Notes: a model not told the origin generated them from the letters alone. Numbered from the stretch's first letter, positions 25,346 through 28,767 are shown. The stretch is 37,763 nt of DNA from a virus (IMGVR_UViG_2522572023_000009); one strand, 5' to 3'. Numbers and translations are program-made.

Positions 25346-27367
25346 TTATAATTTCCTCAACAATTTCCCATTGTTCTTATCAAAGGATATCATTGTATAG
25401 TCATACCCTTCTAATGCCTCTTTTAAGACATTTTCATCTTCTGATGTAGCAAAAATGATCTGCCCTTGTCCTTTTGTTGTTTCTGCAGCATCTTTAAGTA
25501 ACTCGGCAAAACTTACTTTATTTGCTTCTTGTTGACGAGGCTCATCAAACACAATCAATCCAGGGTGATTTGTTTGAAATTTAGAACCAACAACAAATAA
25601 ACTTATTAAATAACCCCAAATGATTCTTATTCCATCACTAGCTGATGTGTCAAAACCTATATCATATCCTTCCCTAGTAGGTAAGTAATTATCTTCTGAT
25701 ATTGACACAAGTTTAGAATCAAAACTTGTAAAATTATATTTTTCTAATCGTGCAACGACTTCTTTATTAAGAAATTTTAACTTATCGGCATCATTACGCG
25801 ACAAGAAATTATCTGGCAATCCTTTTCTTTTCGCGATAAGCTTTTTATATCTACGGTGTAATGAATCCAACTCCAGTCTAATGTCCAATATACTTTTAAT
25901 GCCATCGTTAATGGCATTAATTTTATTCTCAATGTTTATTTTACGTCTCAGAAACTCCTCCTGAACAACCATTGAGGGATATTTTGACTCCCTTAATGCA
26001 TTAATATCAACTCTAATCTTGGCTATTTCCCCCTCTAAATCACTCCTCTCAACATCTTTAAGCTTTAATTGCTTTTCACTATCCGACAGAACAAACTCAA
26101 ATGCTTTTACTTGCTCTTTAATAAAGTTCAAACTATCTTCATATGTCATCAGATTTTCTTGCGATGAAAAACTTAGCAAATTATCATTATAACTTGCACC
26201 ACAAGTCGGACAAATATTTGACATTAAATCTGTTGACTTATACGCATCCGAAGATGATATTTTCTTTAAATCTTCATACTTCCTTTTATCTTCCAACAGA
26301 TTATACAATCTGTTTTTGGTCGCCTGAATTTGATATTGAATATAACTTCTATGCTCACAAATCTCTTTAATCTTTAATTCCAGAGAGTTAATTTCATCAT
26401 TTTTTTGACCTAATAACTTAACCACTGATAATTGTAAAGTTTGTTCTTCTTGCTCACCAAGAGTGTCAAACTTAATTTCTTGCAACTCTTTTTCCAGTTC
26501 ATTACGAACATCAACAATAGATCTAACGACACTACCATTTTTAATAATCAAATCTATCTTATAATGATCAAATTTTGCCACTGGTTGTTCAGGAATCCCT
26601 GTGACAACTGACGACAATTTAGAAGCAATAACTTCTGCATTGTGTTTAATTAACTTCCAATCATGATAAATAATATCAAGTTCATTTCTTAACGAACTAC
26701 GCAATAAAATATTATCATTAACATCAAGAGACATTAAAAATTCTAGAGCTCTTTTCTTTGGCTCTTTAATTCCAAATTGTGTTGGTACAGTCGCCATAAT
26801 TGACGACCATCCTTTTTTTTGCTCAACATACCATGCAGGGAAAAGTACGGATGGATAAAGAATAGTGTCCTTCCCATTATGGTTTGGAACATTTGGCAAA
26901 CTCCAACCTATAAAATCAGCTAACCACTTATAGAAACCACGTTCCCTTTCAGTATCGCCCTCTCTATGTAAAAAATAAGTACCACTCTTACTTTTTACAT
27001 TATTCTTCTCATCTATATAAATAACATTATTATTATCGTGACCGATAATATTCCTTTTCAAAGATGCTTCTATTCCCTTATGATTCTTTATTTTTAGCAA
27101 AACATAAGATGATATTACACTAACTTCAACATTATCTTTTGTCGTTAGTGCTCTAGTCAAAGATGGAGGGAATGGGATTTTTCCAGAACCGACACCTAAT
27201 GCCTTTTCCATCCCAAGTGCATATGCAATCCCATTCATGCAAGTTGATTTACCATGAGAATTCTCAACTCTTAATAAAAACAAGCCATTTGAAAAAGGTA
27301 TACTAACACCATAACGCCCATCCGAAGTATTTGCTACTAACTCCAATGAAATAATTTCCAACGACAT
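25346..27367 (-). CDS. Cargo gene 3: SMC/Rad50-like ABC ATPase with coiled-coil and CxxC hook, 673 aa (candidate LmuB/DdmC-like)
   Basis: An N-terminal P-loop (ENSHGKST), a long Lys/Glu/Leu-rich coiled-coil region with a central CPTC motif, and a C-terminal Walker B/D-loop (LIVFDEPRQQ). There is no nuclease domain after the ATPase C-lobe. The gene is strongly AT-rich. Confidence 0.7.
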   Translation of the reverse strand: MSLEIISLELVANTSDGRYGVSIPFSNGLFLLRVENSHGKSTCMNGIAYALGMEKALGVGSGKIPFPPSLTRALTTKDNVEVSVISSYVLLKIKNHKGIEASLKRNIIGHDNNNVIYIDEKNNVKSKSGTYFLHREGDTERERGFYKWLADFIGWSLPNVPNHNGKDTILYPSVLFPAWYVEQKKGWSSIMATVPTQFGIKEPKKRALEFLMSLDVNDNILLRSSLRNELDIIYHDWKLIKHNAEVIASKLSSVVTGIPEQPVAKFDHYKIDLIIKNGSVVRSIVDVRNELEKELQEIKFDTLGEQEEQTLQLSVVKLLGQKNDEINSLELKIKEICEHRSYIQYQIQATKNRLYNLLEDKRKYEDLKKISSSDAYKSTDLMSNICPTCGASYNDNLLSFSSQENLMTYEDSLNFIKEQVKAFEFVLSDSEKQLKLKDVERSDLEGEIAKIRVDINALRESKYPSMVVQEEFLRRKINIENKINAINDGIKSILDIRLELDSLHRRYKKLIAKRKGLPDNFLSRNDADKLKFLNKEVVARLEKYNFTSFDSKLVSISEDNYLPTREGYDIGFDTSASDGIRIIWGYLISLFVVGSKFQTNHPGLIVFDEPRQQEANKVSFAELLKDAAETTKGQGQIIFATSEDENVLKEALEGYDYTMISFDKNNGKLLRKL

Positions 27368-27368
27368 A

Positions 27369-27845
27369 TTAACCCACCTGAAATATTTTATTAATGTTAG
27401 TTTCGGACAGTCCAGCCTTATGTTTATTTAGCACCAACCTTTCTTCTTTGAACACATCAAGAGAAAGCAATTTCTCAGCGACCTTAAGCCCCTTTTCATT
27501 TATTTTGAACGCTCGTTCATTTCTCAAAATAAAATCCTCTGCTAATAATAGCTGTATTGCTCTATCTAAAGTTGGATCCAATCTTACTTCAGGCTTTAAA
27601 CCTTCTTTGTTTAAAAGCCAGAATTCAAACATTGCTTCATTATTCTCTGACTTTAACATCCAATTAATTAAATGAAGTTTTTTTAAAGAACAGCAACCAG
27701 CTCTCCCTGTGACAAGGAATATTATCAGCAACAAACTGCAACGCCACAATGGTCTCATATCACATGGCAAATGTTCAGGTCGTTTATTAAACGTAAACGG
27801 CCTTCCTATTATTTCATCTATCGTTATATGCATTTGCTTTTCCAT
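27369..27845 (-). CDS. Cargo gene 2: small hypothetical protein, 158 aa (candidate middle component)
   Basis: Tightly coupled to its neighbours (1-nt gaps on both sides), on the same strand and AT-rich; no motif I recognise. Confidence 0.6.
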   Translation of the reverse strand: MEKQMHITIDEIIGRPFTFNKRPEHLPCDMRPLWRCSLLLIIFLVTGRAGCCSLKKLHLINWMLKSENNEAMFEFWLLNKEGLKPEVRLDPTLDRAIQLLLAEDFILRNERAFKINEKGLKVAEKLLSLDVFKEERLVLNKHKAGLSETNINKIFQVG

Positions 27846-27846
27846 T

Positions 27847-28767
27847 CTAAAAATCTAAAGGGCATCTTATAAGCCAATCAGAAATAACTCCCCATGTTAT
27901 CTTATCCAAGTCAGCCTGTTTAAGCGTACTAACTTCCTCTTCAATACATTTCTTTAACAAAGCGATTTCATCTTTCATTATATCTGATGGTTTCGCATCT
28001 GATGAAGTAAGAAGAAAGAGACCTACCAAATTACGTTCTCTATGTTGAACACAGTTATAGATAATTTCATAGATATCAACCCAGTCTCTCTTCAAAGCAT
28101 CCAGCAAGTTTTGATAATCAAGATATTTTTGTATTAAAAACTCTCTATATAAACCCTGCCTAGATACATCATCATTTATCTTAGGTAATTTTAAATTTAG
28201 CTTATCTAAAAAAGATGTATTTTCACTAATAAAGTTAGCAGCATTCTCAGCCGTCGCATCATTTATATTAAAGCTTAATTGATAGTTATTTTTGCGAAGA
28301 AAGAACGCTTCTTCTATATAATTTCGATCTGTTTGCACTACTATTTGAAAATCATCAGCAACGTAAGAAATCCCTAACTCTCTTACTTTTAATGATTTTT
28401 TTGTGCAATATTGACTTAATTTCGCCGATTTATTATATGGTGTAGCTAATATCCAGCGGCTAATTTTTAATGTGCCAAAAAGCTCCTCTAATTCTTTAAT
28501 GTTATCCTGAGAAAACTTTTTTATATCAGTATAAATCTTTTTTTGTTGCGCTTTATAAAGCTTATCAATATCACTCGACTGCTCAGGCAAGTAACACTGA
28601 AAAACATGACCACTCAGAGTGTAACACTCCAGCCCAAAGTCGCCTCCATGCTCATCTGGCAAGTCACAACAGTTAGCAGGCTTATAATGTAGCCAAACAA
28701 TATTTTTGAAATATGATTCCCACGCTTTTGGGTCACTATAAGGATCGTTATACATCGCCAAGCCCAT
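27847..28767 (-). CDS. Cargo gene 1: hypothetical protein, 306 aa, with an N-terminal Cys/His/Asp/Glu cluster (candidate effector)
   Basis: First gene of the three-gene operon. Residues ~33–60 read CCDLPDEHGGDFGLECYTLSGHVFQCY; the rest is predicted helical. The gene is AT-rich. Confidence 0.6.
   Translation of the reverse strand: MGLAMYNDPYSDPKAWESYFKNIVWLHYKPANCCDLPDEHGGDFGLECYTLSGHVFQCYLPEQSSDIDKLYKAQQKKIYTDIKKFSQDNIKELEELFGTLKISRWILATPYNKSAKLSQYCTKKSLKVRELGISYVADDFQIVVQTDRNYIEEAFFLRKNNYQLSFNINDATAENAANFISENTSFLDKLNLKLPKINDDVSRQGLYREFLIQKYLDYQNLLDALKRDWVDIYEIIYNCVQHRERNLVGLFLLTSSDAKPSDIMKDEIALLKKCIEEEVSTLKQADLDKITWGVISDWLIRCPLDF

Follow-up and report, generated by a model that had tools for sequence, protein, structure and literature searches.

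The stretch analysed here (the window) comprises 37,763 nucleotides of the viral record IMGVR_UViG_2522572023_000009 and carries on its minus strand a cassette of three open reading frames (ORFs), at 28767..27847 (gene 1, 306 aa), 27845..27369 (gene 2, 158 aa) and 27367..25346 (gene 3, 673 aa), which we designate lmuA, lmuC and lmuB. An earlier reading made from the DNA by itself, called here the sequence-only reading, had described three co-directional genes, and these were found at exactly the limits that it gave. The 1-nt gaps it described between the genes hold when the first ATGs of genes 1 and 2 are used, but not with the second ATGs, at 28755 and 27833, which leave 13 nt between lmuA and lmuC. 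The second ATGs are the likelier starts because the resulting proteins of 302 and 154 aa are those called by RefSeq/PGAP and agree in length with orthologues (299-304 aa for LmuA and 152-161 aa for LmuC).

All three proteins match Lamassu models in PADLOC, a defence-specific profile library (models of 2023). Gene 1 matches LmuA (PDLC03852, 1.1e-29, residues 12-299 against profile positions 19-333 of 336), gene 2 matches LmuC (PDLC03871, 2.5e-23, residues 17-156 against positions 1-148 of 156) and gene 3 matches LmuB (PDLC03863, 1.1e-98, residues 1-669), with nine further LmuB models matching gene 3 as well. No PADLOC model of any non-Lamassu system was matched by the three proteins. In PHROGs they found only families of 'unknown function', and RefSeq labels all three as hypothetical.

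These matches bear directly on the sequence-only reading, which had seen a Lamassu-like LmuA-LmuC-LmuB layout and had proposed searches of PADLOC, Pfam and fold libraries. The layout is borne out by the PADLOC results for all three proteins and by a solved LmuA as the best structural match of gene 1. For the 306 and 158 aa proteins Pfam returned nothing above cut-off, and Foldseek retrieved the solved LmuA for the former and only weak winged-helix matches for the latter. The middle protein, in which no motif had been recognised, proved to match LmuC. An undescribed three-gene system had been offered as an alternative, and this does not stand, as PADLOC places all three proteins in Lamassu; nor does the idea of an undescribed effector, as gene 1 is a PADLOC LmuA with a predicted restriction-endonuclease (REase) fold, a class already listed for Lamassu, in which REase, Mrr and PD-(D/E)xK domains all occur as effectors.

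We consider it highly probable that the locus is a complete 'short' or type II Lamassu system (LmuA-LmuC-LmuB, ABC-3C), acquired horizontally as cargo in the gpA-gpQ hotspot of a P2-like Escherichia coli prophage. It shares with type II or 'short' Lamassu (Millman et al. 2022, Haudiquet et al. 2025) the order of effector, small middle component and ATPase of the SMC (structural maintenance of chromosomes)/Rad50-like kind. The Lamassu family and the cassette also share a layout of LmuA, with an N-terminal effector and a helical C-terminal domain (CTD), and both come from mobile-element hotspots; they differ in that the LmuA, LmuC and LmuB sequence families here lie outside Pfam/NCBIfam. The cassette belongs to a known family, of which it is an uncharacterised member, and opens no new category of defence system; the Lamassu family, the effector class and the hotspot were all known already.

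The three genes lie in an AT-rich cargo island of ~3.6 kb (25268..28877) at the P2 gpA-gpQ (old/tin) hotspot. On one side P2-like phage genomes cease to match near 25267, ~80 nt past the lmuB stop codon, and on the other the stop codon of gpA lies at 28878. The hotspot boundaries are formed by the gene for the P2 gpA replication endonuclease (28878..31193, minus strand) and by that for the P2 portal protein Q (23999..25033, plus strand), beyond which comes the cos region. The cassette has a GC content of 33.1% compared with 52.4% for the rest of the window, and the GC content at third codon positions (GC3) of its three genes is 0.25-0.32, compared with 0.54 in the adjacent gpA. Both the P2 tin/old position and the AT-rich, foreign composition had been pointed out in the sequence-only reading, and both are upheld by these measurements. 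Directly upstream of lmuA, a consensus scan found a sigma-70-like promoter candidate, TTTACT-18-TATACT (28783..28812, minus strand); promoter-type matches do not exceed the level of chance in DNA this rich in AT (23 observed, 15 +/- 5 expected), and the lmuA promoter stands as a candidate only.

In P2 the gpA-gpQ hotspot houses old and tin, and it is a documented store of defence systems (Rousset et al. 2022, PMC9122126), some of which are able to act on related P2-like phages. A figure legend of the same paper lists SMC and REase domains among the 30 most abundant systems of the P2 hotspot, and according to Millman et al. 2022 prophage hotspots, this one included, contain Lamassu-family members. 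The cassette occupies the same slot between gpA and cos/Q as old/tin and the other systems of this hotspot. Its expected role resembles that of old/tin, prophage-encoded exclusion that protects the lysogen, but the proteins are unrelated and no OLD-type ATPase-TOPRIM fusion is present. The cassette adds to the examples of small defence cassettes that P2-like prophages carry about in the old/tin slot.

The LmuB ATPase and the LmuC component

LmuB (25346..27367, minus strand) is an SMC/Rad50-like ABC ATPase, assigned by its PADLOC match and its motifs, whose heads comprise residues 1-210 and 541-673. The intervening residues 211-540 are charge-rich and poor in proline and glycine, with a CPTC motif at their centre, and are read as coiled-coil arms, giving a predicted layout of head, arm, hook, arm and head as in Rad50-like proteins. 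Conservation of its motifs was assessed in five distant orthologues with 34-48% identity. The Walker A motif ENSHGKST (residues 35-42; 27242..27265, minus strand) has invariant G39, K40, S41 and T42, a Q-loop-like VEQKK is also kept, and the mid-arm CPTC zinc-hook motif (residues 386-389; 26201..26212, minus strand) is invariant. In the C-terminal head, the ABC signature-like SASDG (residues 575-579; 25631..25645, minus strand) has invariant S575, A576, S577 and D578, and the Walker B motif LIVFDE (residues 604-609; 25541..25558, minus strand) is followed by PRQQ, with D608, E609, P610, R611, Q612 and Q613 invariant.

The sequence-only reading had recognised an SMC/Rad50-like ABC ATPase with a hook-like CPTC and had quoted these Walker A, hook and Walker B motifs, all of which were found as described and are joined by the LmuB match at 1.1e-98. 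It erred in placing Walker B at the extreme C-terminus, as LmuB ends ~65 residues past this motif, without an extra domain. Its exclusion of the OLD family is sound: PADLOC gave no OLD, Gabija or PARIS match, and the missing C-terminal domain agrees with this. In short Lamassu systems LmuB is ~600 aa rather than ~800 aa, with Walker B of the form hhhhD[QSTE] rather than hhhhDD and 0-2 CxxC hooks (Haudiquet et al. 2025), hhhhDE being the short-Lamassu form (PMC12663957). With 673 aa, LIVFDE and one CPTC, LmuB here is of the short kind. The canonical glutamate of its Walker B probably gives better ATP hydrolysis. Automated PGAP names for LmuB in some genomes are 'coiled-coil domain-containing protein', 'ATP-binding protein' and 'AAA family ATPase'.

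LmuC, the small middle component (27369..27845, minus strand; likely start ATG 27833, 154 aa), has a counterpart in every locus that we compared: a gene of 126-163 aa lies between lmuA and lmuB in 8/8 loci (the window and seven others), the lower figure being the annotation on a Mesorhizobium plasmid. Its AlphaFold2 (AF2) model has a predicted local distance difference test (pLDDT) score of 86.5 and a predicted template modelling (pTM) score of 0.84.

In Serratia, Pantoea, Cronobacter, Citrobacter, Salmonella, Proteus, Yersinia and some E. coli, homologues of LmuC bear the NCBI name 'serine/threonine protein kinase'. This name looks like a propagated misannotation, because the protein is winged-helix-like, has ~154 aa and lacks a kinase domain.

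The LmuA effector and its putative nuclease motif

LmuA, the effector (27847..28767, minus strand; likely start ATG 28755, 302 aa), divides into a predicted REase-fold domain at ~residues 1-150 and a helical CTD at ~151-306. A search of 5.8 billion proteins gave 147 homologues, mostly of ~300 aa; those with names are 'hypothetical', and a Pfam domain is present in none of the 147. An exhaustive profile search extended the family to 912 representatives of 50%-identity clusters, 469 of them at E <= 1e-30, and among the best-scoring 150 almost all are ~300 aa long and cover nearly the full profile. The same PADLOC LmuA model was matched by 70/70 sampled diverse homologues.

The AF2 model of LmuA, built from 47 sequences (pLDDT 87.4, pTM 0.75), has an N-terminal α-β-β-β-α-β-α-β arrangement (~13-145), followed by a helical domain (151-301). 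The PD-(D/E)xK core fold, α-β-β-β-α-β, is present in this model. Foldseek against the PDB placed solved LmuA first, with 9nxx_D (E 1.2e-4, probability 1.0) followed by Salmonella 9hr5_C (2.6e-3). Because of this modelled topology and these Foldseek matches, the N-terminal half of LmuA is assigned, at the level of the predicted structure, to the PD-(D/E)xK restriction-endonuclease fold.

Conservation across 70 diverse homologues, down to 22% identity, locates the nuclease core motif PDEHGGDFGLECYTLSGHVFQCY at residues 37-59 (28591..28659, minus strand), in the β2-β3 hairpin. Conserved at 100% in the family are D43, G45, Q57, K77, K84, W298 and C302; E47 is E or D in 100%, D81 is conserved in 97%, Y59 in 96% (with F in 3/70) and C58 in 84%. 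The stretch CCDLPDEHGGDFGLECYTLSGHVFQCY, residues 33-59, had been taken in the sequence-only reading for an unusual Cys/His/Asp/Glu cluster, but is instead this β2-β3 nuclease core. A Cys/His metal cluster was rejected, as C33, C34, H40, C48 and H54 vary across the homologues and, among the cysteines and histidines of the stretch, C58 is kept in 84%. The resulting LmuA signature is GDxG[IL]E...QCY, which resembles GDGGIDG...VQAK of E. coli Mrr, with K replaced by Y in LmuA. In place of (D/E)xK, β3 has Q57-x-Y59, and the invariant D43 and E47 lie before and on β2. In the AF2 model a helix spanning residues 67-88 follows, and its polar face at residues 74-84 (α2; Q74, K77, D81 and K84; 28516..28548, minus strand) is a candidate source of the catalytic lysine. 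Because Y59 tolerates F and K77 and K84 are invariant, the lysine is probably supplied by K77 or K84, having moved to the helix after β3. No member of the LmuA family, out of 47, matched Pfam Mrr_cat, and assignment of the domain as Mrr_cat was rejected on an hhalign comparison with E. coli Mrr that was not significant.

At the other end of the protein, the C-terminal tail DWLIRCPLDF (residues 297-306; 27850..27879, minus strand) includes the invariant W298 and C302. This extreme C-terminus is the most conserved stretch of LmuA, the motif being kept in Firmicutes and Actinobacteria copies, and both the signature and the tail, as W-x3-C-P-[LM]-D-F, persist at ~24% identity. In solved Lamassu complexes the LmuA CTD lies near the LmuB zinc hook, and the tail here may serve as a docking or oligomerisation element.

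It is conceivable, if somewhat doubtful, that the LmuA family forms a distinct effector class: a minimal Mrr-like nuclease with its lysine shifted from β3 to the next helix, a CTD of its own and a winged-helix-like type of LmuC. The family could be clade O of Haudiquet et al. 2025, in which LmuA 'seemingly lost the effector domain'. If so, clade O systems would not be effector-less and would carry a cryptic nuclease, which would be a modest new insight.

Related systems, proposed mechanism and alternative readings

The closest structural comparison is with the solved Cap4-type Lamassu systems, DdmABC of Vibrio cholerae (PDB 9nxx, 9ny1, 9ny5 and 9uxi) and LmuACB of Salmonella enterica (9hqx and 9hr5). 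In both Cap4-type LmuA and LmuA here, a nuclease of the PD-(D/E)xK superfamily, in our case a predicted one, forms the N-terminus and is followed by a helical CTD. Salmonella LmuB has a functional zinc hook and LmuB here has the CPTC hook motif, whereas V. cholerae LmuB has no hook. Cap4-type LmuA is longer, however, at ~350-390 residues in the solved chains compared with 302 aa here, and its β3 lysine is catalytic (K57 in V. cholerae, K68 in Salmonella), whereas LmuA here has the Mrr-like GDxGxE...QCY without a β3 lysine. Walker B is 'deviant' in the solved Cap4-type systems and has a canonical D-E in LmuB here. Sequence similarity to the solved Cap4-type chains is undetectable and LmuC here is unlike the MC3 fold. 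No match to the Pfam Cap4/DUF4297 or ABC-3C CTD/MC families was found at E <= 1. Membership of the Cap4-CTD7-MC3 subfamily was rejected on this lack of a Cap4/DUF4297 match, on the QCY of β3 without lysine and on the modelled LmuC.

In the Lamassu-Mrr system of E. coli O150:H5 SE15, too, LmuA is of the Mrr/REase type, and the abortive-infection protection given by that system needs ATPase, effector and LmuC alike (Millman et al. 2022). LmuA here differs from it in lacking a Pfam Mrr_cat match. Identity of the two loci was rejected at the DNA level, as SE15 is not among the 32 genomes found to carry the cassette and the complete E. coli genomes yielded no diverged copy. Mrr-type REase domains, including those of E. 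coli Mrr, AF1548, LlaBIII and the Avs4 nuclease domains, have the lysine of Q-x-K where LmuA here has tyrosine. The 'three hypothetical proteins' system of Rousset, which protects against P1, was also rejected, as PADLOC gave Lmu models only. No match to the SMEK family was obtained in Pfam/NCBIfam at E <= 1, provided that those libraries include SMEK models, as we take them to do. The 'Lamassu missing a known effector' of P4 (Moura de Sousa et al. 2026) was rejected as an identity for the cassette, LmuBC+SMEK having a different effector.

Structural work on Cap4-type Lamassu, in three studies of 2025, agrees on a complex, LmuA1:LmuB2:LmuC1, that sequesters the C-terminal oligomerisation domain of LmuA and senses DNA ends; once released, LmuA assembles into a tetramer, in which the nuclease domains pair and cut DNA, leading to abortive infection. 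By analogy with these solved systems, a likely mechanism here is that the LmuB dimer together with LmuC would sequester the CTD of LmuA, so that the nuclease stays an inactive monomer. The LmuB/LmuC heads would bind DNA ends or replication intermediates from a phage that infects the cell, or from a plasmid, and release LmuA, which would oligomerise through its CTD so that the nuclease domains pair into active sites. The LmuA oligomer would then cut DNA indiscriminately and abort the infection, protecting the lysogen population and hence the prophage. In this scheme the Mrr-like domain of LmuA would be the DNase, and the invariant tail would belong to the surface used for docking or oligomerisation. 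Among the differences, the Walker B glutamate, the zinc hook, the types of CTD and MC and the proposed shift of the lysine may prove important. As a natural Lamassu of small size from E. coli, in which a zinc hook and a Walker B with its canonical glutamate are combined with a minimal Mrr-like effector, the cassette would be a useful comparator for the generality of 'sequester, release, oligomerise', since all structures so far are of Cap4-CTD7-MC3 systems.

Several results weigh against this account of the cassette as a short Lamassu with a nuclease effector. Searches of Pfam/NCBIfam gave no family above cut-off for any of the three proteins, and a sequence search against the solved Lamassu chains in the PDB gave no match for any of them. 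The whole-chain TM-scores of the LmuA model to solved LmuA are low, ~0.29, which is probably due to domain orientation. The canonical β3 lysine is missing from the nuclease motif and the catalytic role of K77 or K84 is a candidate one; the likeness of LmuA to Mrr is visual and fold-level only, and hhalign of the 70-sequence LmuA profile against E. coli Mrr gave a probability of 0.3%. The mechanism is borrowed from Cap4-CTD7-MC3 systems, from which the CTD and MC types here appear to differ. A literature search found no published experiment on the cassette or its subfamily, and the protein accessions of RefSeq likewise drew no match. Foldseek of the LmuC model against the PDB retrieved no solved (MC3-type) LmuC chain, only weak winged-helix matches with E >= 0.09. 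This last mismatch is to be expected, because LmuC proteins comprise eight types, MC1-MC8, of differing fold, of which MC3 alone has been solved; the model indicates an MC type other than MC3 and does not contradict Lamassu membership. The same difference in fold between LmuC types, together with near full-length PADLOC matches for all three proteins (1e-23 to 1e-98) and the top rank of LmuA among the structural matches of gene 1, makes it hardly credible that the cassette is a genuinely new three-gene system with a superficial likeness to Lamassu, even though its proteins have no Pfam/NCBIfam assignment, are hypothetical in RefSeq and include an LmuC model unlike the solved structures. A DNA-repair or maintenance module of the SbcCD/Rad50-Mre11 kind, serving prophage replication or packaging rather than defence, would suit the Rad50/SbcC lineage of LmuB, the adjoining cos and gpA and an automated Gene Ontology term, double-strand break repair, on one plasmid copy. 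Such a role is most improbable, however, as there is no Mre11/SbcD phosphoesterase partner, defence-specific Lamassu profiles match all three proteins, and the cassette is accessory, being missing from other P2-like matches in 2,124 E. coli genomes and from 50,697 phage records, and behaves as a self-contained module in unrelated contexts beside NERD-UvrD, AbiEi and DUF262/DUF1524 genes.

Two further alternatives accept the cassette as Lamassu. In one, the N-terminal domain of LmuA is no conventional hydrolytic DNase and has an altered chemistry, an RNA or modified-DNA substrate, or a role as a DNA-binding regulator with toxicity arising elsewhere. This would explain Q57-C58-Y59 in place of (D/E/Q)xK throughout the family, and it draws on the lack of a nuclease Pfam family and of a significant alignment to Mrr. 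Yet the phenylalanine at position 59 in 3/70 homologues shows the hydroxyl to be dispensable, contrary to a tyrosine nucleophile, and the invariance of D43, E47, Q57, K77 and K84 is that expected of a live metal-dependent active site. Substituted or relocated third-motif residues are known in PD-(D/E)xK enzymes, as in the E-x-E of BamHI and the E-x-Q of BglII, and the best fold matches of LmuA are active nucleases, so that we think this alternative unlikely. The other concerns targets: the cassette might act mainly against plasmids and mobile elements, or against satellite or competing P2-like phages, instead of being broadly anti-phage. The Lamassu system DdmABC restricts plasmids in V. cholerae, P2 hotspot systems can target related P2-like phages, and many large plasmids carry the same cassette, which might be of use to them in competition with other plasmids. 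We judge a restricted target range of this sort quite improbable; anti-plasmid action is compatible with anti-phage activity, every tested plasmid-restricting Lamassu also restricting phages, and the sequence holds no discriminator between targets.

Distribution of the cassette and other features of the window

The A-C-B order and the gene sizes are conserved in the seven other loci compared, on chromosomes of Pseudomonas, Shewanella and Methylophilus, on one cyanobacterial contig, and on plasmids of Clostridium botulinum, Arthrobacter and Mesorhizobium. The contexts are unrelated, often beside the defence-type genes named above. The cassette is present in 32/5,426 complete E. coli genomes, outbreak O145:H28 strains among the carriers, with all copies >=99.5% identical; a distant blastn search of the complete E. 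coli genomes gave no diverged DNA copies. The 15 best matches listed for a query that included the flanks overlap gpA as in the window. DNA and protein searches of the INPHARED phage records did not find the cassette. This pattern fits recently acquired cargo that is spreading with one P2-like prophage lineage. The genes, 'hypothetical' in the 32 complete E. coli genomes and in hundreds of others, could be re-annotated as lmuA, lmuC and lmuB. In E. coli FDAARGOS_1249 (NZ_CP069459.1, 263338-268104) an IS5-family transposase beside the cassette splits the flank-inclusive match in two, and the three genes are intact.

Elsewhere in the window, P2 terminase and portal genes occupy 22197..25033 (plus strand). 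Host DNA is present at the left end, where a peptidase U32 family gene (1..1362) is followed by P2 ogr (1635..1916, minus strand), so that one junction of prophage and chromosome falls around 1363-1634. The window was found to have no tRNA gene.

Two further AT-rich islands were noted. One (GC 0.35-0.39, 8500-10000) lies among the tail genes and includes an ORF at 8844..9686 (plus strand, 280 aa) on the strand opposite to its neighbours. This ORF has no match in Pfam or PADLOC and matches only phrog_19542 (unknown function, 1.1e-22); it is possibly cargo of the P2 tail-gene (Z/fun-type) accessory hotspot. The other (GC 0.33-0.41, 15000-15800) includes an ORF at 14997..15782 (plus strand, 261 aa), on the opposite strand to the late genes, which likewise has no match in Pfam or PADLOC and matches phrog_2407 (unknown function) at 1.5e-146; it is a candidate moron or defence gene.

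In or near the early/integrase end of the prophage lies an IS66-family element (34032-36365, minus strand) with a DDE_Tnp_IS66 transposase of 512 aa and, upstream of it, two small ORFs (35620..35967 and 35964..36365). It adjoins a short Phage_integrase-domain ORF of 205 aa (36563-37180, plus strand), and disruption or immobilisation of the prophage here is possible.

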